A stretch of DNA of 64,000 nt from Escherichia coli (GTDB taxonomy: Bacteria > Pseudomonadota > Gammaproteobacteria > Enterobacterales > Enterobacteriaceae), in the NCBI RefSeq assembly GCF_001677475.2, contig NZ_CP015229.1, one strand, 5' to 3'. Of the stretch, positions 35,345 through 61,897 are shown piece by piece. The position numbers were made by a program, and so were the translations under genes. Within the stretch, counting starts at the first letter, position 1. The number at the start of each line of letters is the position of its first letter. The notes beneath the pieces are model-generated. The model was given only the letters and a program-made list of their open reading frames with translations, was not told the origin of the DNA and searched no databases.

Positions 35345-35758
35345 TCAGATTCCCTCCCAAACTATATATCCTTTGTCTCTTGCCCAACAAACAACTGTGT
35401 GGGCTGTATATGTGGATGTGAAGCCGCAATAAGAACATGACACTTCATACCGAGTATTGTAGATGTTAATGGGCTCGTTCTCCTTGTGTATGGGAGTGAC
35501 ATATTCCCAATCATTTGAATCATCATAATCATCAAGTTCAGGGTCTGTGCCGTGAACAACCGTATGTGGAATAAACAAATCTAGGCGCCCACACGAGAGA
35601 CAAGAGGTTCTGGCTCCTCTATCTTTAAGGAATTGAATAAATAATTTGGGCGAAATCTGTTGCAGAACCTGCAAATGCCCACGTTCATTATCATTAAGAG
35701 ACCTGTCTGCATATGGAAAATCATCAAATTTAAGAGGCTTCATATAAGGCATCTCCAA
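35345..35758 (-). CDS. zinc-ribbon-containing protein of unknown function
   Basis: 137-aa ORF with CLSCG...CSYCG Cys pairs; overlaps int 3' end and abuts the next ORF (operon-like); alternative start 35743. Confidence 0.5.
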   Translation of the reverse strand: MEMPYMKPLKFDDFPYADRSLNDNERGHLQVLQQISPKLFIQFLKDRGARTSCLSCGRLDLFIPHTVVHGTDPELDDYDDSNDWEYVTPIHKENEPINIYNTRYEVSCSYCGFTSTYTAHTVVCWARDKGYIVWEGI

Positions 35759-36722: not shown

Positions 36723-36771
36723 TCGTGAAACCCCAGCGTTACAAGACCACCATGCCCCCAGCGCTCCATGA

Positions 36772-37083
36772 TTAGCCGGGCTGTGTGCCAGTCTTGCGGG
36801 GTTTTTGAGAAGGCGATGTGCTTTTTGGCCCATCAGGGGAGAGAGACGGACTGATCTGCCCAGCAGCCTCATTTGTTTCGTTACTCATCAACCACGTGGT
36901 GTATTTTTTAAAGTTCGGATGCATTGTGATTTTCAGTAAAACCTCCGTCCCCACACCTCTAATACCAGTCTCATATTGCTTAACTGTACCAACCGCAATA
37001 CCTATTGAATCCGCGAACTTTGCCTGGCTAAGTCCCTCAGATTCTCGAATTGCTTTTAGCTTCTTTGATATCTCTATTGACAT
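36772..37083 (-). CDS. P2 C-type immunity repressor (HTH, no peptidase domain)
   Basis: ORF 36772..37155; start set at MSIEISKK (ATG 37081-37083, AGG RBS); HTH plus motif KYTTWLMSNE...GQISPSL resembling P2 C. Confidence 0.75.
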   Translation of the reverse strand: MSIEISKKLKAIRESEGLSQAKFADSIGIAVGTVKQYETGIRGVGTEVLLKITMHPNFKKYTTWLMSNETNEAAGQISPSLSPDGPKSTSPSQKPRKTGTQPG

Positions 37084-45020: not shown

Positions 45021-45356
45021 ATGCAACACATTGACAGAGAAAAAGCGCAGCGACTGATTGAGCGAATGGAAGCGCTGGCGAAAGAAGAAAATGTCAACAT
45101 CCAAAAAATAGCTGAATGTGGCCAGATAGTTCTTCGTCGTGAAAAAGACATCAAGCAACTGATGTCTGGCGAAATCAGCAAAACATGGACTTCAGGCAAG
45201 AAGACGATTTATTGCAGCTTCTGCAATAAATCCCAGCACGAAGTCATAAAGGTGATTGCCGGACCGTCTGTTTACATCTGCAATGAGTGCGTGGATTTGT
45301 GCAATGAAATTATCAGAAGAGAAGTGACAGACCATGAAGAAAAAACGCATGAATGA
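45021..45356 (+). CDS. ClpX-type C4 zinc-binding-domain protein (novel N-terminal helical region fused to ClpX-like ZBD)
   Basis: 111-aa ORF, GGGGGA RBS; residues [38 protein letters not shown] closely match E. coli ClpX N-domain (about 32 of 39 residues by my recollection); no AAA+ module. Confidence 0.8.
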
Positions 45357-45943
45357 CGAATTTGACGGCTTTTAATTTTATCGGGGCACACTGTCTCCCC
45401 CCGCACGAGGAAAACACGATGAAAAAATACGAATACATGCTAATGAAAGAAGCACTGCGGGCTGGTCTGGCTCCCTGTCCTGTATCCGTAGAAGCTGTTG
45501 TTGGGAACACGATTTTCCGAACGCTGCGAAATCGCGTATCCGTGAAGATGATTCACCAACCACCCAAATCTACCAGCATGATCTATCTGCCGCTGCCCGA
45601 GGCTATCAAACTTATGCGTTCGCTGAAATTTGCGATTTGGATGCAGACACAACTCAACAAAGCGGTGCAAAACACCTTCGTTAAGAAACTGATGCCGGAG
45701 CTTGCTGCCAGATGTGCAAAATGTACCAGACCCGCACTTCAATTTGATCTGTCATTGATTCAACAAGCTACGGAGGCAGAACTGTACCGCCTGTCACCTC
45801 TCCATGATGTTCACACGGAAGCCTCAGAAATGTTCCGGCTCATGTTTCAATTTAATTTTGCCGTTCGACGCACACGCGTTCAGGTCAATCGCATGATGCA
45901 GGCGCAGGAAGAGCTGACGCAACACAAAGGAGGCAACCAGTGA
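45353..45943 (+). CDS. hypothetical protein, translationally coupled to ZBD gene
   Basis: ATG 45353 overlaps upstream stop (ATGA); alternative start ATG 45416 with GAGGAA RBS; no recognisable motif. Confidence 0.55.
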
Positions 45944-46464
45944 GCAAGATTGACTATCAGGCATTACGCGAACGCTATTCACCTGCGCCAGTACCGAAAT
46001 GCCCTATTTGCGGCGAGGAAATGTCAATTCAGCGAATATCTGGAGCACAGGTTGTTTATGCCTGCTCCGGTTATGGTGATGATGGAGATTTCAAAATTGG
46101 TCGAACTCTTGCCGACGAACATTATGAAAAATCGCGCGTAACAGTGTTGGATGTCGGGGATCCTGAAGTATTGGCGCTACTTGATTGGCTGGAAACTAAA
46201 GACAACCGAATCGCTGAACTGGAAAAAATCGCCACTGACTATGCACTTAAATTCCAGAAAGCACAGGACGCATTAAAGCATGCCGCTTTGCTGCATAGCC
46301 GGACGGCGCAACAAACAAATAATTTTGCAGTATCGCTTCCGGACATAAGCGAATATTTCATTAATGACGTATTTCAGCCCTTGCGATACGAGCGGGATGT
46401 TGAAAGAGCCATCATAAAGGCTGGCGGAAAAGCATTGTGGCAGGAGAAACACGACGACAGATAA
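45940..46464 (+). CDS. hypothetical protein with N-terminal Cys-rich (zinc-ribbon-like) segment
   Basis: GTG start overlapping upstream stop (GTGA) with AGGAGG RBS; CPICGEE...YACSG; 174 aa. Confidence 0.55.
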   Translation: MSKIDYQALRERYSPAPVPKCPICGEEMSIQRISGAQVVYACSGYGDDGDFKIGRTLADEHYEKSRVTVLDVGDPEVLALLDWLETKDNRIAELEKIATDYALKFQKAQDALKHAALLHSRTAQQTNNFAVSLPDISEYFINDVFQPLRYERDVERAIIKAGGKALWQEKHDDR

Positions 46465-46516
46465 AAATAACACCTGATCTCCCTCAAACCAGGGCGATAA
46501 TCGCGCATCGCCCTGC

Positions 46517-46543
46517 TGCACAATAGTGCACAAATTTGCACAA
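46517..46543. repeat. three TGCACAA direct repeats at exact 10-bp phasing
   Basis: TGCACAA at 46517, 46527 and 46537; helical-turn periodicity suggests protein binding on one DNA face. Confidence 0.6.
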
Positions 46544-46941: not shown

Positions 46942-47041
46942 CGAAGCAGCAGACAAGCGAAGCGCGTCAGTGATGCGGCACCTTGCCGACCACACTTCAT
47001 AAGTGCAAAATACGAGCAAAGAAATCAATGGAGGCTGTTTT

Positions 47042-47566
47042 ATGGTCATTAATTACAAGCAGTTACGAGAAAAACGAGAGCAGGTAAAGGAAAGTTTTCG
47101 CCGCAATGAAGATCTGACCCCGCTTGTACACCTTGCCCAGGGAATTGTTGATGCTTATGAAATCTCTCTGGAGCTGCCATCACAGACATGGACGGATAGC
47201 GACGGTAATCGCCAGCATTACGTTTCATGCGGACTGGAAACAACTGAAGGGTTTCGCAGAATGCCTTTATCTCAGATTCCTGCCGCTACCCCCAAAGCAA
47301 GGGGCGGCAATGATGAGCGAAAACTGATTTTCAGCATTGAGACAGTGGTTGACGACACACCTGGCGAAGTCGCGTTCGTGCATACTCCTCTTTCGATCGC
47401 AATGTATAACGATGAAATACAGGTTCGCGTTAATAATAATATCGTGCCACTTAAAGAAGGTAATTCACCATACACCACCGTTTGTGAAGCCATTCAATAT
47501 TACGTTCTCTCTGAAATTGATAATCTCAAGCCTGACGGCACCCAGAAAATGGTTCAACTCTGGTAA
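47042..47566 (+). CDS. hypothetical protein (orphan gene between non-coding block and portal gene)
   Basis: ATG 47042 with GGAGG RBS (ORF track 47003..47566); followed by strong terminator. Confidence 0.55.
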   Translation: MVINYKQLREKREQVKESFRRNEDLTPLVHLAQGIVDAYEISLELPSQTWTDSDGNRQHYVSCGLETTEGFRRMPLSQIPAATPKARGGNDERKLIFSIETVVDDTPGEVAFVHTPLSIAMYNDEIQVRVNNNIVPLKEGNSPYTTVCEAIQYYVLSEIDNLKPDGTQKMVQLW

Positions 47567-47597: not shown

Positions 47598-48627
47598 CAT
47601 CAAGAAGAGCATAAGAATTAAAACGGATCACCTCTTCGCCAAGCCAGTCATTGATATGCTTCATAGCCTCCATGACGGGCATCAGCTCGTTAATTGCGTA
47701 AACCCGCGCGGCCTTCTCCACATCACCAAACGCACTTTTTTCACCCGGCATCGCCCCCATCAGTTGCGGCGGAACGCGGTGCGCAGCCAGCACATCATCA
47801 CGGGATGCCGCCTTAACATTCATGAACTCATCCTTTGCGGTGATCTGCTGGAACGGCAAAATTTGCACCCCCTCTTTGCCCCCGTTGGGCGCATGAATGA
47901 GCACGTTTTTAAACGCACCACCACCACGCGCACCCTGTAGCGTTTCTTTCAGGGAGTCCATGCTTTCGCGGTTTACCTGCGCTGCACCGATGTAGATGAT
48001 GCACCCGGCGTGGGATCCGTTGTCGTAATACAGTTTTCTGAACATGTCCGCCGAATGAGACAGGCTGGCCGAGAGTAATGCGCCGAGATATTCCGGCATG
48101 CCGTAGATTTCCTGGTTAATGTCAGGATTCATCAGGTGGCACACTTTGCTTGGGCGAAACTGAAACGCGTCCTTGCCATCCTGCACATACCACCATGATT
48201 CAAGATCGCTTCCGCGTCGCATGTATTTCGCCAGGGCGTGCCGTAATTTAAGCGGTTCGCCGAGCATATTGCTTCGAAGCTCAAGGAATGCGTTACCGAA
48301 CACAAACCAGTCCAGCGCCAGCGCCGAGAAATCCTGCCGGGAAAGCAGCGGGTGCGGGATGTAGCAACCGAGTAATACATTGCGCTTAAAGTAAAGCGCA
48401 GACTGATGCCAGGACGTTTGCCGGGCAGCTCTTGCCAGACCGTACCAGTCCACCGGGGTTTCATACCACCGCCCGTTATCAGCACAGTACATATTGTCCA
48501 GCAGGTCATGCCCGGTCAGGCGATAAGGACCATCAAATGTGAATGCACTGAGCGATGATTCTTTCCTGAGCGCATCAGCGAGATCAATGCGTGAACTCAT
48601 GCGCACTTTTTTATTTTTTCTGCTCAT
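47581..48627 (-). CDS. portal protein, P2 gpQ-like
   Basis: 348-aa ORF, leftward, immediately downstream of terminase ATPase gene with ATGA overlap; size and position as P2 Q. Confidence 0.75.
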   Translation of the reverse strand: MSRKNKKVRMSSRIDLADALRKESSLSAFTFDGPYRLTGHDLLDNMYCADNGRWYETPVDWYGLARAARQTSWHQSALYFKRNVLLGCYIPHPLLSRQDFSALALDWFVFGNAFLELRSNMLGEPLKLRHALAKYMRRGSDLESWWYVQDGKDAFQFRPSKVCHLMNPDINQEIYGMPEYLGALLSASLSHSADMFRKLYYDNGSHAGCIIYIGAAQVNRESMDSLKETLQGARGGGAFKNVLIHAPNGGKEGVQILPFQQITAKDEFMNVKAASRDDVLAAHRVPPQLMGAMPGEKSAFGDVEKAARVYAINELMPVMEAMKHINDWLGEEVIRFNSYALLDEKTAP

Positions 48628-50378
48628 CAGAACTCCATAACCGTGAAACGCTCGTTTTCTCCTTCGCCGCCAATCGGTTCGTTAATGACAGCAAGCATGG
48701 TTGCCCACGCAAGGTCGCCGTGGCTGATCCCCCTCGCGCGGTCCGTTTCGTAAGTGATAAAGCCGCCCGGTGTTTTCACCTTACGCACGGCGTTAAAGGC
48801 CGCGACCAGCTCGCGTTCGGCGCGATCGTATTCCCAGCGCCCGGCACGCATTATTTGCAGCATTTTCAGTACCAGCGACCGTTTTGATGACAGCGTGAAG
48901 GTGTACGGAATAGCAGCAGGGAAAAACCGTTTCACTATCTGATAAACAGCCTCCCCGTTCCCGCCCGTCACATCAATGCCGATGTGTTCCACGTTGTAGC
49001 GATACGTGAACTCTTCAATGACTCTGGCCTGTTCTTCAAACTCCAGCCCCTGAACGCGTCGCGTCTCCACCGTTCGAAAACGGCCACCAGGAACAGCCGG
49101 AGGAACCACCACGGACACAGCGCCGCTGTCGCCGTTGCCACTGCTGCCGTTTGCGTCATACCCAATCCATACCAGACGATTCCCCATCGGGCGGGGAGCA
49201 AAAGGTTTCCAGTCTTTCCAGTCGTCGTATCCGTCAACACCGCAGCCAATCAGGATATTCAGGTTAAATGCCGATTCCCCTTCGCGAACAAACTCACACA
49301 TATAGAGATTGAGGAACTCGTCTTCGGTGTTTTCATCACGGATTTCGTCAATATCGGTGTGTTTCCAGCCGTGATTAACCACATCTTCCAGCGTGACAAT
49401 TTGCCGCCACGTCCGGTCAGGGCAGATAAGCCCGTTATGCAGCGTTTTCCAGTCCACAGAAAAACGCTGGCGTTTATGCGAGGCCTTTTTCTCGTTCCAG
49501 CGGTCGCCGTTCCAGTAGGCGTATGCCTCGTGCGTTTCGGTGGATGGCGTGGAGAAGTAGGTGCGCCGCAGTCCGCTGAGGGTTGCCATAGCGCCAGCCA
49601 CCTTGCGCAGTTCAGCAAAGCGACTGACCCAGAAAAATTCATCAAAATAAAAATTGCCCGTATAGGACTGTGCCGACGCAGCAGAAGTGCCGAGAAAATG
49701 CAGCTCTGCGCCGTTGGAGAGGATGATTTTATCGCCCCCTTTCAGCTCCACATCAACTTCAGCCGCGGCCTTCTGAATAATGCTTTTAAACTGGAACGCC
49801 TGACGACGCGACGCAGACAAAAAAATCTGGTTACGCTGGTAAGGTTGCGCCACATCGTCACGCAGCGCCATCAGCAGCGCTTCCTGTGCAAAATACCAGG
49901 TTGCCCCAATCTGTCGGGATTTCAGGATCATCCTGTTACGTATCCCGGCTTCCCTGCAAAGGGTCAGGGAGTCAAACCAGCCCCGCTGATGCCACTCCAG
50001 CCTGCTGATGATTTTTTCCCGCAGTGCGGCAATCTGTTCCGGCGTGAAATGATTTTTGAGTTTTTTCGCCCGGCCTTTCTTTCCTGCGGCCATCACATCC
50101 GGCTGGCCATCATGCAGCTTTTTAAGCTGCCGGGTCAGCAGGTCTATTTCCTTAAAGTCACCGCCTGTTTTATTCTGTTTTTCAGTAAGCTGGATGAGGC
50201 GCGCATCGATGGACTGCGTGACACGCTGCACGGGTGGCGCTTCATCCCACTGGTCGCGTTTTTTCCACGCATAAATCGTGTTCGGGTTTATTCCCATCAG
50301 ACGTGATATTTCTGCGGGCGGATAACCCTGCCAGTAAAGTTGCCGCGCACGCTGGCGCACAAAAGCGTCCTGAATCAT
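48627..50378 (-). CDS. terminase large (ATPase) subunit, P2 gpP-like
   Basis: 583-aa ORF; leftward, divergent from capsid genes as in P2; KSRQIGATWYFA ATPase region. Confidence 0.85.
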   Translation of the reverse strand: MIQDAFVRQRARQLYWQGYPPAEISRLMGINPNTIYAWKKRDQWDEAPPVQRVTQSIDARLIQLTEKQNKTGGDFKEIDLLTRQLKKLHDGQPDVMAAGKKGRAKKLKNHFTPEQIAALREKIISRLEWHQRGWFDSLTLCREAGIRNRMILKSRQIGATWYFAQEALLMALRDDVAQPYQRNQIFLSASRRQAFQFKSIIQKAAAEVDVELKGGDKIILSNGAELHFLGTSAASAQSYTGNFYFDEFFWVSRFAELRKVAGAMATLSGLRRTYFSTPSTETHEAYAYWNGDRWNEKKASHKRQRFSVDWKTLHNGLICPDRTWRQIVTLEDVVNHGWKHTDIDEIRDENTEDEFLNLYMCEFVREGESAFNLNILIGCGVDGYDDWKDWKPFAPRPMGNRLVWIGYDANGSSGNGDSGAVSVVVPPAVPGGRFRTVETRRVQGLEFEEQARVIEEFTYRYNVEHIGIDVTGGNGEAVYQIVKRFFPAAIPYTFTLSSKRSLVLKMLQIMRAGRWEYDRAERELVAAFNAVRKVKTPGGFITYETDRARGISHGDLAWATMLAVINEPIGGEGENERFTVMEF

Positions 50379-50532
50379 TGCTCCCCCTGAGTAATTACAG
50401 GAAGATTACCCGCGCGCGAAACCGTTCTCCTTAACCCCCTGTTCTGGCCGTTTTCTTACAACAAAAGCCCTTTGTATCAGCCTGTTACGCTTTGCCATCA
50501 TGACTGAAGAACCAGTCAGAGGGGCAAAAACT

Positions 50533-51369
50533 ATGGCTAATGAAAAAAAGACATCCCGCAAAAAGTTTCGCGTGGCTGTCTCCGGATCAACTGTTGATGG
50601 CCGTGAAATCAGCCCGGTACATCTGCGTGAAGCCGCCGAGAACTTCAACCCGGATGTTTACGCTGCCCGCGTGAACGTTGAGCACTATCTCTCGCCATGC
50701 CCGTCAAGCGAATTTTCCGCAATGGGCGATGTCACCGCGCTGAGTACGGAAGATATTACGGAAGGCCCGCTGGCCGGACGTACTGCGCTGTATGCAGAAA
50801 TCGAACCGACCGAGCGCATGAAGCAGCTTGTCGCTGACGGCAAGAAAATCTATTCCAGTATCGAACTGCACCCGCAGTTCTCCGTTAACGGGCGCGCCTA
50901 TCTGGTCGGGCTGGCGATGACCGACACCCCGGCAAGCCTGGGCACTGAGCGCCTGAAATTCACGGCACAGCAGCGTCAGGCGGTGATGACGTTCAACAGT
51001 ATCCAGGGTGAAGCACCGCTTATCTCCGAAGCCATCGAGTCTGAAATCATCGAAATGGCAGAACAACGCCAGGAAGAAGGCAGCCAGTGGTTTAACCGCG
51101 TAATGGGGATTATTGGTCGTGGGCGCAAAGCGGATGACGCCAGTTTCTCCCGTATTCAGGAAGCGGTGGAAGGCGTCGCAACGTCACAGGCCGACATTAT
51201 CGACCGTTTTAATGTGCTGGAAACCCGCCATCAGCAGGACCGCCAGAAAATCACGTCACTGACCACAGAGCTGGCAGCACTGAAGGAAAAACTGCGCACG
51301 CAGGACGGCGATCCGCAGAACCGGTTCACCGCAACGGGCGCAGCCTCCGACCAGCTGGCTGACTTCTGA
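50533..51369 (+). CDS. capsid scaffolding protein, P2 gpO-like
   Basis: ORF 50500..51369; start set at MANEKKTSRKKFRVAVSG (GAGGGG RBS); position upstream of major capsid gene. Confidence 0.65.
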   Translation: MANEKKTSRKKFRVAVSGSTVDGREISPVHLREAAENFNPDVYAARVNVEHYLSPCPSSEFSAMGDVTALSTEDITEGPLAGRTALYAEIEPTERMKQLVADGKKIYSSIELHPQFSVNGRAYLVGLAMTDTPASLGTERLKFTAQQRQAVMTFNSIQGEAPLISEAIESEIIEMAEQRQEEGSQWFNRVMGIIGRGRKADDASFSRIQEAVEGVATSQADIIDRFNVLETRHQQDRQKITSLTTELAALKEKLRTQDGDPQNRFTATGAASDQLADF

Positions 51370-51391
51370 TAAGACAAAGGAGCAAATTTTT

Positions 51392-52444
51392 ATGAATCTG
51401 GTGATGTCAGATATTACCCGCAACAAGCTGGGTTGCTATATGGCGCAGCAGGCGTCGCTTAACAATATCCCGGTATCTGCACTGGTATCGCGATTTACCG
51501 TAGAACCCTCGGTGCAGCAGCGTTTTGAAAACGCAGTAAAGGAGAGCACTGAATTTACAAAAAAAATTAACGTGTTCGGTGTGACCGACCAGAAAGGCGA
51601 AAAAATCCTCCTGGACACCACCGGGCCGATTGCGCGCACGAATACCAGTTATGACGGCACAAAACGCCGTAACCCGAATAACGTGGTTGATCTGAAAAAC
51701 CGCAAATATCAGTGCGAACAGGTGAACTACGACACGTTTATTTCGTATCCGAAGCTTGATGCCTGGGCGGCACACCCTGATTTTCAGTCACGCGTCAGCA
51801 CACGGATTGCCCGGCAGGTGGCGCTTGACCGCATCATGATCGGTTTCAACGGCACGTCTCACGCAGATGAGTCCAACTTCAGCACCAACAATCTGCTTCA
51901 GGACGTTAACGTGGGATGGCTGGAGCACATCAGAACCGACGCCAGCGAGCGCGTAATGAATGACGTGACGCTGACCTCCCGCAACATGGACAACACTGTG
52001 GCGCACGCGGGTAAGTATGCGAACGCTGATGCACTGGTACAGGACGCGCGCTCATCCCTGCTGGATGAATGGCACAAGGAAGCTGACGACCTCGTGGTGA
52101 TTATGGGGCGCAACCTGTTTAACTCGCTGCGTCTGCCCGTACTGAACAGCATCAGCGGCCAGAATCCCAATGCGGAATTACTTGCCGGACAGCTCATCCT
52201 GTCATCGCGCGCCATTGGCGGGCTGGATGTATTCCTTGCGCCGTTCTTCCCGGATGCAACGATGCTGATCACCTCGTTCAACAACCTGTCGATTTACTGG
52301 CAGAAAGGAACAATGCGTCGCCTGATGAAAGACGAGCCGGAATACAACCGCATCGCCACCTACCAGTCCATCAATGACGCTTATGTCGTTGAAGACTATG
52401 GCAAGTGCGCGATGGTCACTGGCCTGAAGTTCGCCGACAGCTAA
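51392..52444 (+). CDS. major capsid protein, P2 gpN-like
   Basis: 350-aa ORF with GGAG RBS; motifs FTVEPSV, YQCEQVNYD, IMIGFNG, DATMLIT, VVEDYG resemble P2 N. Confidence 0.85.
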   Translation: MNLVMSDITRNKLGCYMAQQASLNNIPVSALVSRFTVEPSVQQRFENAVKESTEFTKKINVFGVTDQKGEKILLDTTGPIARTNTSYDGTKRRNPNNVVDLKNRKYQCEQVNYDTFISYPKLDAWAAHPDFQSRVSTRIARQVALDRIMIGFNGTSHADESNFSTNNLLQDVNVGWLEHIRTDASERVMNDVTLTSRNMDNTVAHAGKYANADALVQDARSSLLDEWHKEADDLVVIMGRNLFNSLRLPVLNSISGQNPNAELLAGQLILSSRAIGGLDVFLAPFFPDATMLITSFNNLSIYWQKGTMRRLMKDEPEYNRIATYQSINDAYVVEDYGKCAMVTGLKFADS

Positions 52445-52489
52445 TCAACTCACGGCGGGCATCATACCCGCCTGTAACGGAGAGAAAAA

Positions 52490-53290
52490 ATGATTACTCC
52501 TGCACAGCAACACTGGCAGAACGTGATGGCACAGCGCGCAGGCCGGGCGAATGAAGGCGTGGACCACGCCGCGCGTACCGCGCATGAAGAGGTGCTGTAT
52601 CGTCTGCGTCTGGCACAGGCCCGGCTTAAGGGCGTACAGGCCAGAAGCGCGAAAGCCGCCATCAAAAAAGAGTTGTTGCCGGATTTTTCCGGCTGGATTG
52701 AGGGAACGCTGGAGGCTGACGGCGGGCAGCAGGATGAAGTGATTGCCACGCTGATGGTGTGGGCGATTGACTGCGGCGATCTTCCGCTGGCGTTGCGTAT
52801 TGGTGCGTATGTGGTCCGTCATAACCTCATTATGCCGGATAACTTTGGCCGTACTGCTGCCACGGTACTGACCGAAGAAATCTGCAACCCGGTACTGACG
52901 CAGGCCGGGACGGATGCCGACGCGGATTTATCCGCCTTTATCGAACCACTGGATACCCTCCGGGAGATTGTCACCGACCAGGACATGCCGGACGAAGTGC
53001 GCGCCAAATTATGCAAGGCGTGCGCCTTTGCCCGTCGTGGTCTGAGTGATGCGGACAGCATGGCCCTGTCACTGAAGCTGCTGCGCGAAGCAATGCACCT
53101 GAACCCGAACGCAGGTGTGAAACGCGAGATTGCAACCCTTTCCCGCGCCCTGAAAAAAGCCGATTCCGCAGCCGCACCAGAAGACGCCAGCGCACAGCAA
53201 ACGCAGGACGAAAGCAGCAAAAGTAAAAAGACAACGCGGAAGCCTGCAACACGAAAAACCACCGCGACGCAGAAGGCGAAGCGCGGTTAA
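52490..53290 (+). CDS. terminase small subunit, P2 gpM-like
   Basis: 266-aa ORF after capsid gene; acidic/basic C-terminus; position. Confidence 0.6.
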   Translation: MITPAQQHWQNVMAQRAGRANEGVDHAARTAHEEVLYRLRLAQARLKGVQARSAKAAIKKELLPDFSGWIEGTLEADGGQQDEVIATLMVWAIDCGDLPLALRIGAYVVRHNLIMPDNFGRTAATVLTEEICNPVLTQAGTDADADLSAFIEPLDTLREIVTDQDMPDEVRAKLCKACAFARRGLSDADSMALSLKLLREAMHLNPNAGVKREIATLSRALKKADSAAAPEDASAQQTQDESSKSKKTTRKPATRKTTATQKAKRG

Positions 53291-53383
53291 CGACTGACCC
53301 CGTCAGCGGGCGGCGTGCGCGGTGTTCCGGTTTGACTCCGTGACCGTTTACACCGCGCACCCACCGCCCGATTTTTTTCAGGA

Positions 53384-53887
53384 GTGAACCCCATGAGTAT
53401 GGTTGCCAGAAATGAACCCAGACCCGCAGAGGACGACATCACCGATACCGATGATGGCGATACCCGCATTTCAGCGGGTGCATTCTGGCCGGATATTGTG
53501 CTGCGCGAGCTGCGTCTGGCGGTACGACTGCCGGGCCGCGTGACTACCTCCCGCCTGCTGCATACTGCCACCGGGGCTGTGGCACACGTTACCCGCGAGC
53601 TGGAAGCATGGCAGCAGGAACAGCAGGCAGCTGGCCATCAGACGCTGGCCGATGTTCCGGCACCCGTAATTAACGGAGAAAGCGTCAATCTCTGGCACTG
53701 GCGCAATGCTGTTTATACCGCCACGCGCGCCCTGATTCTGGAGCGTTATCGTGATGCAGACACAACGGACAAGGGCGACCGCCGGGCGGACGCACTGGAT
53801 ATACAGACATCGGATTTGTGGCGTGATGTGAGCTGGGCCATCTCTGACATTCTGTGCCGCCCACGAATCTTTGCGGAGTTGTGCTGA
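53384..53887 (+). CDS. head completion/stabilisation protein, P2 gpL-like
   Basis: 167-aa ORF; position after M. Confidence 0.55.
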   Translation: MNPMSMVARNEPRPAEDDITDTDDGDTRISAGAFWPDIVLRELRLAVRLPGRVTTSRLLHTATGAVAHVTRELEAWQQEQQAAGHQTLADVPAPVINGESVNLWHWRNAVYTATRALILERYRDADTTDKGDRRADALDIQTSDLWRDVSWAISDILCRPRIFAELC

Positions 53888-54087
53888 TGAAAGTAAAGGC
53901 ACTGGAAGGCGACACCGTGGATTCGCTCTGTTTCCGGTACTACGGCACGACGCAGGGCGTCACCGAAAAGGTGCTGGATGCCAACCCCGGACTCTGTCAG
54001 CAGGTATTTCTGGACGCCGGGCAGGAAGTGGAGATGCCGGAGCCGGAGAAGAAGAAACGAGAAATGATTCAGTTGTGGGGGGAGTAG
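53884..54087 (+). CDS. tail protein X-like (LysM-like small protein)
   Basis: 67-aa ORF; position between L and holin as P2 X. Confidence 0.55.
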   Translation: MMKVKALEGDTVDSLCFRYYGTTQGVTEKVLDANPGLCQQVFLDAGQEVEMPEPEKKKREMIQLWGE

Positions 54088-54089
54088 CA

Positions 54090-54413
54090 GTGAGCACCAT
54101 TCAAACAGGGATCACAGAGCAGGTTATTGCGTGGCTCTTTGACCACCTGCCAACGGTGTATGCAGTAGGCGCGGCGGTCAGCATTTCCGCGCTGATGAGT
54201 CTTTATGACGGACGAACACTGGTTCAGACCGTAACGGGATCGCTGGCGTGCGGCGTTCTTGCCATGGCCGTGGCCGGGTCGTTGCGCTTCTTCGGGTTTC
54301 CTGAAGATGCCGTGACGTTTATCGGCGCATCAATCGGTTTTATGGGGGCAGAGAAAGCACGCGACAAGGTTATTGCGGCCTTTAATCGCAGGGTGAAGGA
54401 GAAGGACGAATGA
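54090..54413 (+). CDS. holin
   Basis: GTG start at 54090; about 107 aa with two hydrophobic helices and charged C-terminus; precedes endolysin. Confidence 0.55.
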   Translation: MSTIQTGITEQVIAWLFDHLPTVYAVGAAVSISALMSLYDGRTLVQTVTGSLACGVLAMAVAGSLRFFGFPEDAVTFIGASIGFMGAEKARDKVIAAFNRRVKEKDE

Positions 54414-54802
54414 GCAACACATTTAAATTCAGCAGCCGGAGCGAAATGAATTTGCAGGGCGTAAATCCTGATCTGGTGAAAGTGACCCGACGGGCACTGG
54501 AAATCTCGGAAGTGGATTTTGGTATCACCGAAGGGTTGCGCAGCCGTTACCGCCAGAAGCAACTTGTGGCCACAGGTAAGAGCCAGACCATGAACAGCCG
54601 CCACCTTACGGGGCATGCCGTGGATGTTGTGGCTTATATCGGCAGCCAGGTGTCATGGGAATGGCCGCTGTACGAAAAAATCGCAGCAGCATTCAGACAG
54701 GCCAGCCGGGAACTGAATATTCCGGTGGAATGGGGCGGCGACTGGAAGACCCTGAAAGACGGACCGCATTTTCAGTTACCACACGGAGCCTATCCGGCAT
54801 GA
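54410..54802 (+). CDS. endolysin, peptidase M15 (L-alanyl-D-glutamate endopeptidase type)
   Basis: 130-aa ORF; SRHLTGHAVDV-like zinc-binding region typical of VanY/M15 peptidases; lysis-cassette position. Confidence 0.65.
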   Translation: MSNTFKFSSRSEMNLQGVNPDLVKVTRRALEISEVDFGITEGLRSRYRQKQLVATGKSQTMNSRHLTGHAVDVVAYIGSQVSWEWPLYEKIAAAFRQASRELNIPVEWGGDWKTLKDGPHFQLPHGAYPA

Positions 54803-55206
54803 AGCTCTGGCCCACGCTGGGTGTCGCTTTCCTTCTGATTGCCGCATGGGGAACATCCATGCGTCTGTCGTGGTCGCTGGGCCGGGAGAACGCCAGAAAC
54901 GAAGCGCAGGCCAGCACCCTGAAAAGTACCGCCGACACCCTGAATATCATCAGCGCCGGGGTACAGGATATGCAGCAGGTGCTGGCGCAACTCCGCGTGG
55001 AAAATCAGCAACGCAATCAGGACGGAGAGGTAAGACGTGAACAGCTACGCAACGATATTGCAAAAGATGAATGCGCCCACGCTTTGCCTGACGCTCGTTT
55101 TACTGACAGGCTGCGCAGGCACGCAGAACGCGCCACTGCCAGCGCCGTCAGTCCGGCTTATACCGCAGACGCTGACCATACCGGTAACGCCTCCCCCCTT
55201 CCCTGA
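54799..55206 (+). CDS. spanin inner-membrane subunit (LysB/Rz-like)
   Basis: ORF 54655..55206 with start at MKLWPTLGVAFLLIAAWG (N-terminal TM) overlapping endolysin stop; coiled-coil body. Confidence 0.5.
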   Translation: MKLWPTLGVAFLLIAAWGTSMRLSWSLGRENARNEAQASTLKSTADTLNIISAGVQDMQQVLAQLRVENQQRNQDGEVRREQLRNDIAKDECAHALPDARFTDRLRRHAERATASAVSPAYTADADHTGNASPLP

Positions 55207-55357
55207 TACTCCCACATGGGGAAATCTCGGTATATGGGGCGACCGCCTTCTGGATGCACTGGAAACCTGTAACGCGGATAAACGGGCCATTGAATTACTG
55301 GAACAGCGCAGGCTGCAACGACTGAACAACGAGGACAACAACCATGCTGAAAACTGA
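55067..55357 (+). CDS. spanin outer-membrane lipoprotein subunit (LysC/Rz1-like)
   Basis: ORF 55037..55357; MNAPTLCLTLVLLTGC signal with lipobox Cys; Pro-rich; overlaps LysB 3' end in another frame. Confidence 0.55.
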   Translation: MNAPTLCLTLVLLTGCAGTQNAPLPAPSVRLIPQTLTIPVTPPPFPDTPTWGNLGIWGDRLLDALETCNADKRAIELLEQRRLQRLNNEDNNHAEN

Positions 55358-55811
55358 TTCCCTGCGTGAAGCCATGACCCGTTCATGCCGATGGTGTCAG
55401 GCCAACCCGGAAAAATTCACCATTTTCGTGGAGAGCGGCAACATTGAAACGACAGGAGAAACCCCATCGTTTGTTTACCGCTATCAGATGGTGATGTTTG
55501 TCATGGATTACGCCGGGGAGCTGGACGACCTCACGCTGCCGCTGCTGGCGTGGTTATCCGAAAATCAGCCACAGTTGTTGCTCAACCCGGAGCGTAATCA
55601 GGACATCAAATTCTCCGCCGTTATCAATGACGATGACAGCGCCGATCTCCTGTTTACGCTCCCCCTGCGGGAACGCGTTCGCATCACGCGCAGCAGTCAG
55701 GGCACACCGCAGGCAGAACACCTGCCGGAGCCAAAACCACGCCTGCCATCTTCCGAAGGCGACTGGTCGCATGTATTCCGGGATGTGACGTGGGGTGAAA
55801 GCGATGGATAA
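55344..55811 (+). CDS. tail completion protein, P2 gpR-like
   Basis: 155-aa ORF; position and size as P2 R. Confidence 0.55.
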   Translation: MLKTDSLREAMTRSCRWCQANPEKFTIFVESGNIETTGETPSFVYRYQMVMFVMDYAGELDDLTLPLLAWLSENQPQLLLNPERNQDIKFSAVINDDDSADLLFTLPLRERVRITRSSQGTPQAEHLPEPKPRLPSSEGDWSHVFRDVTWGESDG

Positions 55812-56439
55812 GGCATTCACCCGCGTGGATGAAACCTTTGAGGCCATCCGCGACAGCCTGAATCAGCAGGCCATCAATAACATCGCCAGAAAGCTGGCAC
55901 AGGATTTACGCCGCGCCCAGCAGGCGCGTATCCGGTCACAGAAAGCGCCGGACGGGACCGCGTGGACACCACGCAGACGCCGCGTAACCCGGATACAGGA
56001 ACGCATTCGCTTTATCTGGAATAACGAAGCACGCACGCTGAAAAACTGGCATCACGACACGGGGAAATACGGGCGAACCATTACCGGGTGGGATGAGGAT
56101 AAAAACAATATCCGCACGTTTTACCGGGATGACATCGACCGTTTTCTGGAAATACGCACCCGGCGCATCAACCAGGACAGCACAAAGCGCGTCCCCATGT
56201 TCGTAAAACTGCGCACCGCCCGCTACCTGAAAGCCCGTGCAGATGCTTCCGGTGTGACGGTGGGTTACAGCGGCGTGGCTGCACGTATTGCACGCGTTCA
56301 TCAGTTTGGTGAGCGCGATCAGGTTGCGCCGGGCATTTTCACCGATTACCCGGTACGTGAGCTGTTGGGCATCAGTCAGGCAGATGAACGCCTGATTTAT
56401 AACACGGTGCTGGGCCGGATTGCGGAGGCTGTACGGTGA
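55795..56439 (+). CDS. virion morphogenesis/tail completion protein, gpS-like
   Basis: 214-aa ORF; position after R. Confidence 0.5.
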   Translation: MKAMDKAFTRVDETFEAIRDSLNQQAINNIARKLAQDLRRAQQARIRSQKAPDGTAWTPRRRRVTRIQERIRFIWNNEARTLKNWHHDTGKYGRTITGWDEDKNNIRTFYRDDIDRFLEIRTRRINQDSTKRVPMFVKLRTARYLKARADASGVTVGYSGVAARIARVHQFGERDQVAPGIFTDYPVRELLGISQADERLIYNTVLGRIAEAVR

Positions 56440-57017
56440 GCGCAGAACTCATGCGGCTGCTGAGCAACATCATCCGCACCGGGATCATCTCTGAAGTTGA
56501 TGAGGAATCCTGGTGCGTGCGCGTTCGCAGCGGCGAACTGGAAACAGGCTGGCTGCGCTGGAACACCACTCGCGCGGGAGCCTTCAATGTGTGGCTGCCG
56601 CCATCACCAGGCGAACAGGTGGTAATTGCCTGCATCGGCGGCAACCCGGAAACCGCCATGATAATTGGCAGCCTGTGGAGTGATGCCAGTCCGGCCCCCG
56701 GCAAAAGCCTGAAAGAAATCGTGATCAGCGCGCCGGACGGCGCGGTGTTCCGCTACGACGCGGACGCTGGCGCACTGAGCGCCAGCGGCATGAAAACGGC
56801 CACTTTACAGGCATCCGTCAGCGTGACACTGGATACGCCCGTCGTGGAATGCACAAACCTTCTGAGAACGGCGACGCTTGACGTCACAAAAGGAGGAAAG
56901 ATGAGCGGCAATATCACGCACAGCGGCGGCAACTTCACCTCAAACGGCATTACCGTGCATACGCATAAACACGGTGGCGTGAAAGGCGGCAGCGATTCGA
57001 CAGGAGGCCCGCAGTGA
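56436..57017 (+). CDS. baseplate spike/assembly protein, P2 gpV-like
   Basis: 193-aa ORF; Gly-rich C-terminus; position. Confidence 0.7.
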   Translation: MSAELMRLLSNIIRTGIISEVDEESWCVRVRSGELETGWLRWNTTRAGAFNVWLPPSPGEQVVIACIGGNPETAMIIGSLWSDASPAPGKSLKEIVISAPDGAVFRYDADAGALSASGMKTATLQASVSVTLDTPVVECTNLLRTATLDVTKGGKMSGNITHSGGNFTSNGITVHTHKHGGVKGGSDSTGGPQ

Positions 57018-57364
57018 CAACCCGCTACACAGGAATGAACCCGGACGGAACGGGAAACCTGAACGATATGGAGCACCTGAAACAGTCAGTCAGGGACATC
57101 CTGACCACCCCGCTGGCAAGCCGGGTTATGCGACGGGAATATGGCAGCCTTGTGCCTGATTTGATTGACGAACCCATGAATAACACCACGCGTCTGCAAT
57201 GCATGAGTGCTGCCGTGATTGCACTGACACGATGGGAACCCCGCATTGCCCTGGACGCCATCGACGTTGTCTGGAAGGCAGGAGGCCGCGCCGGGGTGAC
57301 GCTGTCGGGCACTGTCATGCAGACCATGCAGAATGTTGAATTAACCATCACGCTGAGGGAGTAA
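57014..57364 (+). CDS. baseplate wedge protein, P2 gpW-like (GPW/gp25 family)
   Basis: 116-aa ORF; position and size. Confidence 0.65.
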   Translation: MTTRYTGMNPDGTGNLNDMEHLKQSVRDILTTPLASRVMRREYGSLVPDLIDEPMNNTTRLQCMSAAVIALTRWEPRIALDAIDVVWKAGGRAGVTLSGTVMQTMQNVELTITLRE

Positions 57365-57367
57365 ATC

Positions 57368-58264
57368 ATGCCTGCCGTTGACCTTTCACAGTTACCGGAA
57401 CCCGCCATCATCGCGGAGCCTGACTTTGAGGCAATTCTGGCTGACACAAAGGCCATGATGATTGCGTCCTATCCCGCCGAACAGCGTGAAGCCGTCTCCG
57501 CCGCGCTGGAGCTGGAATCGGAACCCCTGAACGTTATCGCCCAGACAACAGCGTTTCGTGAAATGCTGTTACGCCAGCGGGTCAATGAGGGGGCACGCGC
57601 CTGCATGTTAAGCCACAGCGCCGGGACAGACCTGGACAACCTCGCGGGCAATATGAACACAAAGCGCCTGACCATCACTCCGGCAACGGATACCACCGAC
57701 GCGGTGATGGAGAGCGACACCTCGCTGAGACTGCGGGCGCAGCGGGCGTATGACGGCCTGAGTGTTGCAGGCCCGTCAGGCGCATACGAGTATTTTGCAC
57801 GCAGCGCCAGCGGTCTGGTGCGTGATGCGCGGGCCATCAGCCCGTCTCCGGCCTGTGTGACGGTTTCCATTCTGTCCACTGAAGGCGACGGCACAGCAAC
57901 GGAGGCGTTGCTTAATACCGTTCGCGCCGTTCTGAATGCAGAGGATACCCGCCCGGTGGCCGACCGCCTTACTGTACAGAGCGCCAGAATCGTGACATGG
58001 CGGCTGAATGCAAAACTGTACTTTTACCCCGGCCCGGAATCCGAACCTATTCTGGCCGCGGCGGAATCGTCATTCAGGAAGTGGCTGGCTGAACAGGGGC
58101 TTATCGGTCAGGACGTGGCGTTGTCCGCCATTGCTGCCGCACTGCATGTGCACGGTGTGCAACGCGTGGAGATAATCGAACCCACACAGAATATGGCCAT
58201 CAGCGACATACAGGCGGCGCGCTGTGAGTCATTCACCATCAGCGAAGGTGGACGCAATGAGTAA
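57368..58264 (+). CDS. baseplate protein, P2 gpJ-like
   Basis: 298-aa ORF; position and size. Confidence 0.7.
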   Translation: MPAVDLSQLPEPAIIAEPDFEAILADTKAMMIASYPAEQREAVSAALELESEPLNVIAQTTAFREMLLRQRVNEGARACMLSHSAGTDLDNLAGNMNTKRLTITPATDTTDAVMESDTSLRLRAQRAYDGLSVAGPSGAYEYFARSASGLVRDARAISPSPACVTVSILSTEGDGTATEALLNTVRAVLNAEDTRPVADRLTVQSARIVTWRLNAKLYFYPGPESEPILAAAESSFRKWLAEQGLIGQDVALSAIAAALHVHGVQRVEIIEPTQNMAISDIQAARCESFTISEGGRNE

Positions 58265-58865
58265 TTCGTTGTTACCACCATCAGCCAGCAATTTCATGCG
58301 TTGTGCCGAAGCCGTCGGAACACGCATTACAGACATTCCGGTAGACCTCAACACGCTGTGGTCGCCGGACACCTGCCCGGTGCATCTGCTGCCTTATCTC
58401 GCCTGGGCGTTTTCCGTTGACCGCTGGGATCGCAACTGGCCGGAAGAGACAAAGCGACAGGTGATTCGTGATGCATGGCTGATACACCGACACAAAGGGA
58501 CCATCAGCGCACTGCGAAGAGCCGTGGAGCCTCTCGGCTACCTGATTGAAGTAAAGGAGTGGTGGCAACTCAACGAGGAGCCGGGAACATTTCGCATTGT
58601 TGTCGGAGTACTTGATCAGGGCATCACCGATGAAATGTATCAGGAACTTGAGCGCCTTATTGCGGATGCAAAACCAGTAAGTCGCCATCTGACGGGGCTG
58701 GCGATCAGCCTGAGTGTGAACGGAAAGATTTTCGTTGGTACGGGATGCTATCACGGCGATGCCCTGACGGTTTATCCCTACACCCCGGAGTCCATTATTG
58801 TCGAAGGGGATTATTTCCCTGCCCCGGCCATTCATTTAATTGATAATCTGAGAGTAAACGCATGA
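58257..58865 (+). CDS. baseplate protein, P2 gpI-like
   Basis: ORF 58224..58865 with start at [11 protein letters not shown]; position. Confidence 0.6.
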
Positions 58866-60346
58866 CAGTGAAATACTACGCCATTCTGACTAATCAGGGC
58901 GCGGCACGACTGGCTAACGCGACGATGCTCGGCAGTAAGCTGAATCTGACGCAAATGGCCGTTGGTGATGCAAATGGTGTGTTACCAACACCAGACCCTG
59001 CACAAACAAAACTGATTAACCAGAAACGCATTGCACCGCTGAATCTTCTGAGTATTGACCCGAACAACCAGAACCAGATTATCGCGGAGCAAATCATCCC
59101 TGAGAACGAGGGCGGATTCTGGATCCGTGAGATTGGTCTTTATGATGATGAAGGCGTACTCATTGCGGTGGCAAACTGCCCGGAAACGTACAAACCGCAG
59201 TTGCAGGAAGGCAGTGGACGCACCCAGACTATCCGCATGATTCTGGTTGTCACGAACACCGAAGCCATCACGCTGAAAATCGACCCGTCTGTGGTTCTGG
59301 CAACCCGCAAATATGTGGATGACAAAATCTCAGAGCACGAGCAGTCACGACGTCACCCGGACGCCTCGCTGACTGTAAAAGGTTTTACTCAGTTAAGCAG
59401 CGCAATTAACAGTGAATCAGAAACACTGGCCGCAACACCGAAAGCGGTTAAGGCTGCATATGACCTGGCTAACGGGAAATATACCGCCCAGAACGCCACC
59501 ACAACACAAAAAGGGATTGTTCAGCTCAGTAGCGCCACAAACAGCACGTCTGAAACGCTGGCAGCGACACCAAAAGCTGTTAAGGCGGTAATGGATGAAA
59601 CGAGCAAGAAAGCACCATTAAACAGCCCGGCACTGACCGGAACGCCAACAACACCAACAGCGCCACAGGGGACTAATAGTACCCAGATCGCAAGCACGGC
59701 TTTCGTTATGGCCGCGATTGCCGCACTTGTAGATTCGTCACCTGATGCACTGAACACGCTGAACGAACTGGCTGCGGCGCTGGGCAATGACCCGAATTTT
59801 GCGACCACCATGACTAACGCGCTTGCGGGTAAGCAACCGAAGGATGCCACCCTGACGGCGCTGGCGGAGCTTGCTACATCAGCAGATAAACTCCCATATT
59901 TTACAGGGGCAGATCGTGCCGCGTTAACCGCGTTGACAAGTGTTGGACGTGCCATTCTTGGTAAAACCAGCACTCAGGGAGTTCTTGATTACCTTGGTTT
60001 GGGAGAAGCGGCTAAAAGGAATGTAGGGACAGGGGCGAATCAGATACCTGATATGGGTAGCTTCACGCTTTCTGTTTCAGGTACTGGATATCAAAAATTA
60101 CCATCAGGTTTTATTCTTCAGTGGGGATCAATCGGCGCACCAGGCATTGCACAGGATGTAGTAACCCATTTCCCGATTGCATTTCCAAACAGATGTCTGC
60201 GTGTTTTGGTCTCACAAGACTACACACCAGATAGCGGGGCTGTTGGTTATATTGCCTGTGCAGGTTTTAGTCCCGACCCGGTTAAATTTATATCCAGAGC
60301 CAGTACTCCTGGCCTCGGCGCTTCATTTTTAGCGTTAGGCTGTTAA
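58862..60346 (+). CDS. tail fibre protein, P2 gpH-like (constant N-part plus invertible C-terminal part)
   Basis: 494-aa ORF; internal [13 protein letters not shown] repeats typical of tail fibres; C-terminal ~115 aa lie inside invertible segment. Confidence 0.8.
59981..60006. promoter_or_regulatory. invertase crossover site (left), inside tail-fibre gene
   Basis: Reverse complement TTCTCCCAAACCAAGGTAATCAAGAA matches right site in first 14 positions; gix/hix-like architecture. Confidence 0.65.
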
Positions 60347-60367
60347 TTTAGCTATATGGAGTGAAAA

Positions 60368-60808
60368 ATGAATTACATATATTCCGCGACTACAAACTCT
60401 TTCTATCCGCTGGAGATGAAAGAGGATTACACTCAAGCTGACTCATGGCCAGATGATGCTGTTGAAGTTGATGAGCAAGTGTATATTGAGTTTTCCGGAT
60501 TACCGCCGAAAGGAAAAATCCGTATCGCTGGAGAAAATGGTTTTCCTGCATGGTCTGAAATTCCACCACCAACACATGAGGAACAAATTGCTGCAGCCGA
60601 ATTGGAGAAGCAGCAATTGATTAATCAGGCCAACGATTATATGAACAGTAAACAATGGCCTGGTAAAGCGGCTATTGGTCGTCTGAAAGGTGAGGAACTG
60701 GCGCAATATAATTTGTGGCTGGATTATCTGGACGCACTGGAACTGGTTGATACCTCCAGTGCTCCAGATATTGAATGGCCTACGCCTCCGGCAGTTCAGG
60801 CCAGATGA
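60368..60808 (+). CDS. tail fibre assembly protein (Tfa, gpG-like), currently expressed orientation
   Basis: 146-aa ORF; C-terminal motif LWLDYLDALELVDTSSAPDIEWP shared with inverted paralog. Confidence 0.7.
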   Translation: MNYIYSATTNSFYPLEMKEDYTQADSWPDDAVEVDEQVYIEFSGLPPKGKIRIAGENGFPAWSEIPPPTHEEQIAAAELEKQQLINQANDYMNSKQWPGKAAIGRLKGEELAQYNLWLDYLDALELVDTSSAPDIEWPTPPAVQAR

Positions 60809-61376
60809 CATCCGGCGCGGTGCTGGTATCTGTTGCCGTCACCGCGTCAATGTAATCCAGCACAGCGTTAAGTCTGGTTGTTTCTGCCTGCGTCAGTTTA
60901 CGTCCGGCCTGTAATTTCAGCTGAATCAGACTAATGGAAGCCATTGCTGCATCAATCAGTGACTGGCGCTGTGCTTCTGCCGTTTCTACTGCGGCACCGT
61001 GTTGTGCCTCAGTATCTGTCACCCATTTCTCACCATCCCATTTATCATATGGCGTTAACGGTGAAAGCGTGACATAACCGTTTTTGATGGCACCGATATA
61101 ATCCACTGTAACAGCAGCACCATTTTCGATTGAGTAAACAGTCTCATTGCGATGGTCTTCTTCATGGCTCCATCCCTTACCTGTAAATACTGCCACTCTT
61201 CCCGGAATGTTTTTGCCAGGGTCAATTCCAGTGGAACAGGCGGGCATACTTACGCCAGTATTAATATATTCATCAGACCAGCCCGTATACTCAGATGTTT
61301 CAGCATCATAATAAAAACAACGCATATCGCCCGGCACTGTAGCCAGTCCATTTTCATCAAAAATTGGGGTCATCAT
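60780..61376 (-). CDS. alternative tail fibre assembly protein (Tfa'), inverted orientation
   Basis: 198-aa ORF convergent with tfa; C-terminal motif LNAVLDYIDAVTATDTSTAPDVIWP. Confidence 0.65.
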   Translation of the reverse strand: MMTPIFDENGLATVPGDMRCFYYDAETSEYTGWSDEYINTGVSMPACSTGIDPGKNIPGRVAVFTGKGWSHEEDHRNETVYSIENGAAVTVDYIGAIKNGYVTLSPLTPYDKWDGEKWVTDTEAQHGAAVETAEAQRQSLIDAAMASISLIQLKLQAGRKLTQAETTRLNAVLDYIDAVTATDTSTAPDVIWPELPEA

Positions 61377-61816
61377 TTAGCCCTCACCAGAAAGTTAAAT
61401 GCAATATTTCGCGGTCTGACGGCAACAAAATTCACACCATCACCCACAGAGTTACTGGTGAAATTAAATCGTGAAAATCCTGGCTGATTTCCGGCGATAC
61501 CATCATGAAAATTAATTGCGTGGCCCGCACCATCGCCTATATTCCCGGCAAACTGAGAAAAGTTTGTAGCTGCCTGCCAGCTTAATAATTCGCGACCACC
61601 GTCTACACCTCGCCCGTCATCCCAGATACGAATGAAATCACCGCGGGCTTCAGGTAATACCAGCGAAGGAAACACTTTCGCCAGCACAGGGTAATCAGTG
61701 GCAGAAAATTTCGCCCCGTTGAACTTCAAAAACACCATACCGGACCAGCTGTCGATTACAGTATTTGGCATTGCCGCGGAGGGCCAGAAGAACGGAACGC
61801 CAATAGCTGGAGTACC
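61373..61816 (-). CDS. alternative tail-fibre C-terminal segment (promoterless; fused to H constant part after inversion)
   Basis: Open frame 61373..61870 on minus strand runs through right crossover site; encodes LGEG at the junction, matching LGLGE at the left site in H. Confidence 0.6.
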   Translation of the reverse strand, partial: GTPAIGVPFFWPSAAMPNTVIDSWSGMVFLKFNGAKFSATDYPVLAKVFPSLVLPEARGDFIRIWDDGRGVDGGRELLSWQAATNFSQFAGNIGDGAGHAINFHDGIAGNQPGFSRFNFTSNSVGDGVNFVAVRPRNIAFNFLVRAK

Positions 61817-61842
61817 TTCTCCCAAACCAACGTTTAAGAAAA
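61817..61842. promoter_or_regulatory. invertase crossover site (right)
   Basis: TTCTCCCAAACCAACGTTTAAGAAAA, imperfect palindrome resembling gix/hix; inverted repeat of site at 59981..60006. Confidence 0.65.
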
Positions 61843-61897
61843 TGCAGAGATTACGGCTAACTGGCATCATCCCCGGTTTTTATTCAGGGGATCCATC

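Follow-up and report, generated by a model that had tools for sequence, protein, structure and literature searches.

Positions 54090-55357 (+) of the window, the 64,000 nucleotide stretch of Escherichia coli DNA that was analysed, hold an ordinary four-gene lysis cassette of a P88-like prophage of the P2 family, made up of a holin, a zinc peptidase endolysin and two spanins. What was established directly is the gene anatomy, the family membership, the retention of the catalytic residues and a sequence nearly identical to that of an inducible phage. Very likely the cassette serves for lysis in a P88-like prophage (Xuanwuvirus, Peduoviridae) of an E. coli-type chromosome, is part of the late operon and acts by a lambda-like mechanism. 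The cassette itself is already known and routinely annotated, its proteins carrying in E. coli the RefSeq labels phage holin family protein, M15 family metallopeptidase, DUF2570 domain-containing protein and LysC.

Organisation of the cassette

The four lysis genes are tightly packed, with the tail gene X on one side and the tail-completion gene R on the other. The features of this part of the window, read from 53.4 to 57.0 kb, are:

53384-53887, + strand: L, P2 family by Pfam
53887-54087, + strand: X homologue, tail protein of 66 aa, left flank (PF05489, 8.3e-21; 48% identical to P2 X)
54090-54413, + strand: holin of the lambda S family, 107 aa, GTG start (PF05106, 1.1e-19; phrog_126, 1.7e-35)
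54410-54802, + strand: endolysin, single-domain M15 (LAS) zinc peptidase, 130 aa (PF13539, 8.2e-12; phrog_465, 2.8e-76)
54799-55206, + strand: i-spanin (Rz-like), 135 aa (phrog_214, 3.1e-41; hydropathy)
55037-55357, + strand: o-spanin, Rz1/LysC-like lipoprotein (PF23793, 7.8e-13; phrog_3001, 3e-25; lipobox scan)
55344-55811, + strand: R homologue, tail completion protein of 155 aa, right flank (PF06891, 4.6e-40; 40% identical to P2 R)
55795-56439, + strand: S, P2 family by Pfam
56436-57017, + strand: V, 47% identical to P2 V

Upstream the cassette is flanked by L and X, and downstream by R, S and V, therefore the gene for the 130 aa protein occupies the position of K in phage P2. ATGA overlaps are present at both the holin/endolysin and the endolysin/i-spanin junctions. 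The PHROGs labels are holin/antiholin, endolysin and, for both of the remaining ORFs, Rz-like spanin. By the scores listed, the family assignments of the cassette proteins are far above chance.

The coordinates and gene anatomy given in the original prediction are correct, with all of the ORFs at the positions that it named. Its central claim, that a 130 aa M15-like peptidase gene lies at the position of P2 K, is confirmed by PF13539, phrog_465, the PDB matches and the X and R flanks, and the outcome that it named as refuting, a non-lytic assignment, was not obtained, since homology searches place the protein in the lytic M15/LAS L-Ala-D-Glu endopeptidase family. The overlapping spanin genes that it described, with a lipoprotein gene starting inside the i-spanin gene and extending past it, were likewise found (55037-55357 against 54799-55206).

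ORFs on the minus strand at 54224-54616, 54693-54950 and 55045-55386 have no PHROG family match and were rejected as genes. A search of the + strand found no sigma-70-like promoter within the cassette. Terminator-like sites are no commoner there than in shuffled sequences and none makes a convincing terminator. An internal promoter, terminator or P2-like attenuator was therefore rejected. The P2 late-promoter element TGT-N12-ACA does not occur in exact form upstream of O, in the intergenic region between P and O.

Relationship to phage P88 and distribution

When phage genomes were searched by megablast, the L to S region was 98.7% identical over all 3056 nt to Escherichia phage P88 (Xuanwuvirus, Peduoviridae), and a dozen similar coliphage records also matched. 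Against the whole P88 genome, the 11.1 kb late region at 47606-58700 is 97.5% identical and the relationship is mosaic elsewhere: the replication region is 97.6% identical over 4.3 kb, and other segments of the prophage, which runs past the end of the window, are diverged or replaced. The P88 lysis genes, SF19_gp30-gp32, have the same order and sizes and differ from those of the window by point differences only; they are annotated as holin/anti-holin, endolysin 'Peptidase M15' and DUF2570 protein. The cassette is the standard one of phage P88 and the genus Xuanwuvirus. P88 is a P2-like, mitomycin C-inducible phage that forms infective, plaque-forming particles, and its lysin has been noted previously as phylogenetically distinct from the lysins of other P2-like phages (PMC5285337).

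It is very unlikely that the prophage is defective and the cassette, though intact in appearance, a silent remnant of it. In favour of this, the window ends inside the prophage, and the early region, integrase and tail-fibre region are mosaic relative to P88, so that this particular prophage may or may not be inducible; against it, the four lysis ORFs and all of the late genes seen, from 47.6 to 58.7 kb, are uninterrupted and 97.5% identical to those of a functional phage. The lysis cassette of a P88-like prophage with an intact late region is the preferred reading.

Outside the cassette, P88 and the prophage of the window differ in the integrase, in the tail fibre and in part of the early region. 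Host DNA in the window resembles that of E. coli, and the prophage adjoins btuC. The prophage integrase, of 380 aa (Int_N and Phage_integrase), lies next to host btuC, the spans concerned being 35730-36872 (-) and 33641-34621 (-). The integrase has no blastn-level similarity (E<=1e-10) anywhere in the P88 genome, and its junction with btuC recurs in about 213 E. coli genomes (coverage of at least 80%). Also different from P88 is the cargo that lies between the portal gene and the ParM/partition genes (45353-46517 and 47003-47566). It contains a 196 aa ORF without a match in Pfam, PHROG or PADLOC, an Ead/Ea22-like ORF of 174 aa and a 187 aa ORF matching phrog_5091; no defence genes were found there by PADLOC. 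The tail-fibre and fibre-assembly region, at 58700-61887, has 73-85% identity to P88 or no match, and similarity to P88 returns at the DNA invertase gene. This tail-fibre divergence is typical host-range mosaicism.

A 271 bp stretch of the S gene (56054-56324) shares 98.5% identity with a gap, free of annotation, in the 254-kb record of Aeromonas phage AP1 (MT713136). This match is probably due to an assembly chimera or contamination in MT713136.

Of 5426 complete E. coli genomes, about 1007, approximately one in five, contain the 1268 nt cassette at a coverage of at least 80%. This very common endolysin of E. coli prophages belongs to a family that is under development as antibacterial enzymes (LysECD7).

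The holin

The sequence GGGGGGAG sits five bases upstream of the holin GTG at 54090. The holin scores 71.1 bits against PF05106 (Phage_holin_3_1, the lambda S family; cutoff 23.8) and 54.5 bits against the NCBIfam lambda-holin equivalog TIGR01594, 0.5 bit short of its cutoff of 55.05. Identity to lambda S is 23% over 60 aa. A crude hydropathy scan gave hydrophobic segments at approximately residues 20-39 and 44-70, with a weak third at approximately 73-86 that was below threshold, lambda S itself being under-called by the same scan. The protein ends in a charged C-terminal tail, EKARDKVIAAFNRRVKEKDE.

A lambda-style dual start for the holin and an antiholin was not found, the single GTG with a Shine-Dalgarno sequence being the one plausible start. 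There is an in-frame GTG 15 nt upstream, which adds no charged residue and lacks a Shine-Dalgarno sequence; a dual-start antiholin arrangement was rejected. The dual start is a feature of lambda S itself, not of the family as a whole, and it is absent from this holin. Since the holin has a single start and lysA is absent, this suggests that there is no dedicated antiholin.

The endolysin

The 130 aa protein scores 46.0 bits against PF13539 (Peptidase_M15_4; cutoff 25). A phmmer search of all PDB sequences matched it to 23ri_A, a 'Peptidase M15C domain-containing protein' (3.6e-48), to Serratia ChiX, 5OPZ (6e-48), to LysECD7, 8Q2G (4.6e-46), and to the L-alanyl-D-glutamate peptidase of phage T5, 2MXZ/8P3A (5.6e-22), with Ply500 and LysB4 as more distant relatives. 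The alignments are free of gaps, at 63% identity to 23ri_A and 62% to ChiX. Gap-free identity of 62% to solved structures settles the fold and family of the endolysin.

All parts of the M15 motif are present: H-x6-D, a distal His, a catalytic acid three residues before the distal His, and a Trp. ChiX has been shown biochemically to be a zinc L-Ala-D-Glu endopeptidase with ligands His68, Asp75 and His123, in which Asp120 is essential and Arg47 is implicated in substrate binding (PMC5778951). Residue mapping places the zinc ligands of the endolysin at H65, D72 and H120, its catalytic aspartate at D117 and the equivalent of Arg47 at R44. The residues H62, D69, H117 and W109 of LysECD7/EndoRB49 correspond in turn to H65, D72, H120 and the conserved W112, Trp109 being catalytically important in those enzymes (PMC11267749, PMC10487532). 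EndoRB49 is an assayed L-Ala-D-Glu endopeptidase without ion regulation (PMC10487532). For LysECD7 the structure has been solved, and L-Ala-D-Glu endopeptidase activity predicted from it (PMC11267749). The 130 aa protein is therefore a predicted L-alanyl-D-glutamate endopeptidase, its bond specificity being carried over from ChiX and EndoRB49, which were assayed, and from LysECD7, which was solved. Its match to the RB49/LysECD7 and ChiX type is far stronger than that to EndoT5, which suggests that Ca2+ regulation of the EndoT5 kind is absent.

The N-terminus of the endolysin is MSNTFKFSSRSEMNLQG, and a hydropathy scan of its 130 aa found no signal peptide, SAR sequence or any other hydrophobic segment. 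Having no hydrophobic N-terminus, the endolysin should depend on the holin, as a canonical cytoplasmic enzyme rather than one of the SAR or secreted types. Homologues of this M15 endolysin are found in 1343 of 50,697 phage records, including those of T5-like, RB49-like and PY100 phages.

The spanins

As judged by hydropathy, the i-spanin has a transmembrane segment at its N-terminus (approximately residues 1-21) and an extended polar part in the periplasm. It contains a single Cys. Its match to DUF2570 is weak, at 21.2 bits, below the cutoff of 26.6. The o-spanin scores 48.6 bits against PF23793 (LysC, an Rz1-like family; cutoff 27) and is 106 aa long from the GTG at 55037 or 96 aa from the ATG at 55067. 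The GTG is preferred as the probable start because GGAGAGG precedes it and because it gains a lysine in the n-region of the signal peptide. Counted from this start, the lipobox LTGC has its Cys at position 26 (encoded at 55112-55114), and the mature lipoprotein of 81 aa contains 10 Pro and one further Cys.

The o-spanin gene uses the +1 frame relative to the i-spanin gene and begins inside it, 170 nt ahead of its stop codon (overlap 55037-55206). It runs on for 151 nt past that stop, overlapping R (55344) by 14 nt. The pair thus has the transmembrane segment, lipobox, Pro-rich mature part and +1 frame overlap of a two-component spanin of the overlapped architecture.

The o-spanin sequence is conserved in P88, phiSM and E. 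coli 10153. Public gene models for it in the P88-type lineage are poor, being either missing or starting downstream of the lipobox. In the P88 RefSeq record the gene is unannotated. The RefSeq lysC CDS of E. coli 10153 (WP_097738121.1, 65 aa) has as its start an ATA codon that corresponds to 55160 of the window and lies 16 codons downstream of the lipobox Cys, and it therefore has no signal peptide.

Comparison with phage P2

All of the proteins of the P2 L to V region were compared by blastp. The L, X, R, S and V proteins of P2 are homologous to proteins of the window at 36, 48, 40, 26 and 47% identity, respectively, and the lysis genes are in the same place, between X and R within the late operon, with the same overlapped spanin architecture. 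The components of the P2-type cassette (Y, K, lysA, lysB and lysC) are, with one exception, not matched by homologues here. The P2 holin Y belongs to PF04550, whereas the holin here belongs to PF05106 and has no blastp match to Y. P2 K has 55% identity to the transglycosylase R of lambda and is unrelated to the M15 peptidase, the two having no blastp match. There is no counterpart of lysA in the cassette, and lysB has no blastp match from the i-spanin. The exception is lysC, matched by the o-spanin alone at 28% identity (E 0.002), both being in PF23793. On these comparisons the difference from P2 covers the whole cassette except the family of the o-spanin, rather than K alone.

The possibility of a recent swap against P2 was rejected. 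Since the backbone proteins are themselves only 26-48% identical to those of P2, the difference reflects two old lineages rather than a recent event. The cassette marks the prophage as very probably of the P88/Xuanwuvirus type and not of the P2/Peduovirus type; this matters little beyond classification.

Two further differences lie downstream of the cassette. The S homologue is 214 aa long, compared with 150 aa in P2, with approximately 60 extra residues in the middle of the protein. Its stop codon overlaps the start of V, and there is no orf30 gene, terminator or separate promoter region for V as in P2, therefore the late genes may form one longer operon than those of P2.

Exchange of the endolysin gene

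Within the genus, the sequence of Citrobacter phage Shae_phiSM is 96.5% identical to the window up to 54390 and 97.7% identical from 54795 on, by blastn breakpoints. Between these points, 54391-54794 is replaced by a 615 nt segment (2508-3122 of the phiSM sequence compared) that encodes an endolysin with GH108 and PG_binding_3 domains. The exchanged unit is the endolysin ORF together with approximately the last eight codons of the holin, and it ends four bases before the start of the i-spanin gene. The presence of a GH108 endolysin in the same slot of this sister phage confirms that it is the endolysin slot. Among complete E. coli genomes, 38 carry the GH108 version and about 1007 the M15 version.

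The M15/GH108 difference is a true and recent single-gene swap, a case of textbook mosaicism, and the pair is a clean natural example of the exchange of one endolysin gene with the holin and spanins held constant. The original prediction had seen a module swap relative to P2. In this K is indeed replaced by an M15 peptidase, but the holin, lysA and lysB also differ, the difference from P2 is an old one, and it is against phiSM that a recent swap is seen. The view that this is routine mosaicism, useful for classification, fits both the P88/Xuanwuvirus-type cassette and the M15/GH108 swap in phiSM.

Proposed lysis mechanism and alternative roles

Late transcription from upstream of O, with the genes in the order O-N-M-L-X-lysis-R-S-V, would yield all four of the lysis proteins. 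By analogy with lambda, in timing as in mechanism, the putative class I holin would accumulate in the inner membrane, trigger and form large lethal holes. The cytoplasmic 130 aa zinc peptidase would escape through these holes and cleave the stem peptide of peptidoglycan at its L-Ala-D-Glu bond. Disruption of the outer membrane would follow, brought about by the i-spanin in the inner membrane together with the lipoprotein o-spanin in the outer one.

There is a still smaller chance than that of a silent remnant that the lysogen uses this holin, M15 peptidase and spanin set as a type 10 secretion system, like chiWXYZ of Serratia marcescens, with host proteins being released without phage production. 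The four-component make-up is the same (PMC4259817), the peptidase is 62% identical to ChiX, and ChiW has a single start like the holin here. However, the genes of the cassette are translationally coupled and embedded between the tail genes X and R of a phage, and the late operon around them has 97.5% identity to that of an inducible phage. A type 10 secretion locus would be expected to have cargo genes adjacent to it and to lie outside a prophage, but the neighbours here are capsid and tail genes and there are no adjacent chitinase or toxin cargo genes. The authors of the ChiW study stress that there are no phage genes around chiWXYZ (PMC4259817), the opposite of the cassette described here.

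Least credible of all is that the 130 aa protein is a VanY-like D-Ala-D-Ala carboxypeptidase, serving in wall remodelling or protection and not as a lytic enzyme: PF13539 is named 'D-alanyl-D-alanine carboxypeptidase', which is a family name only, and some phage records label homologues in this way, but the assayed close relatives ChiX (62% identical) and EndoRB49 are L-Ala-D-Glu endopeptidases, as is the more distant T5 endolysin, and LysECD7 is predicted from its structure to be one, the cassette has no other muralytic gene, and a GH108 muramidase-type endolysin fills the same slot in the sister phage. Phage lysis with the M15 peptidase as the endolysin is therefore the preferred role.

Comparison with other lysis and secretion systems

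LysECD7/EndoRB49 (8Q2G) and EndoT5 (2MXZ/8P3A) share with the endolysin the single-domain M15C fold family, the zinc site and the conserved Trp. EndoT5 is activated by Ca2+ through a loop, and its match to the endolysin is much weaker (E 5.6e-22). The endolysins of T5-like phages have approximately 37% identity by tblastn.

The chiWXYZ genes of S. marcescens encode a holin of the holin-3 family, an M15 L-Ala-D-Glu endopeptidase and two spanins (PMC4259817). All of the active-site residues of ChiX are conserved in the endolysin here, at 62% identity, and its partners are of the same kinds, a holin of the lambda S family and two spanins, ChiW, ChiY and ChiZ being likened by description. The chiWXYZ genes are in a chitin-utilisation locus without phage genes and serve in secretion, whereas this cassette lies inside a prophage late operon. 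The order of the spanin genes also differs, in that the lipoprotein gene chiY precedes the gene for the membrane-anchored spanin, chiZ, while here the i-spanin gene comes first. As doubtful as a silent remnant is the proposal that the P88-type cassette is the direct source of chiWXYZ, or that lysogens use it for the low-level, non-lytic release of proteins; the endolysin slot would then be a defined point of M15/GH108 exchange between a constant holin and constant spanins.

The S-R-Rz-Rz1 cassette of phage lambda has the same order of holin, endolysin, i-spanin and o-spanin, and has a holin from the same Pfam family. Its R protein is a transglycosylase, whereas the endolysin here is a peptidase, and Rz1 is fully embedded in Rz, whereas the o-spanin gene here extends past the i-spanin gene. 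In composition and order, the cassette is closer to lambda S-R-Rz-Rz1 than to the lysis genes of P2.
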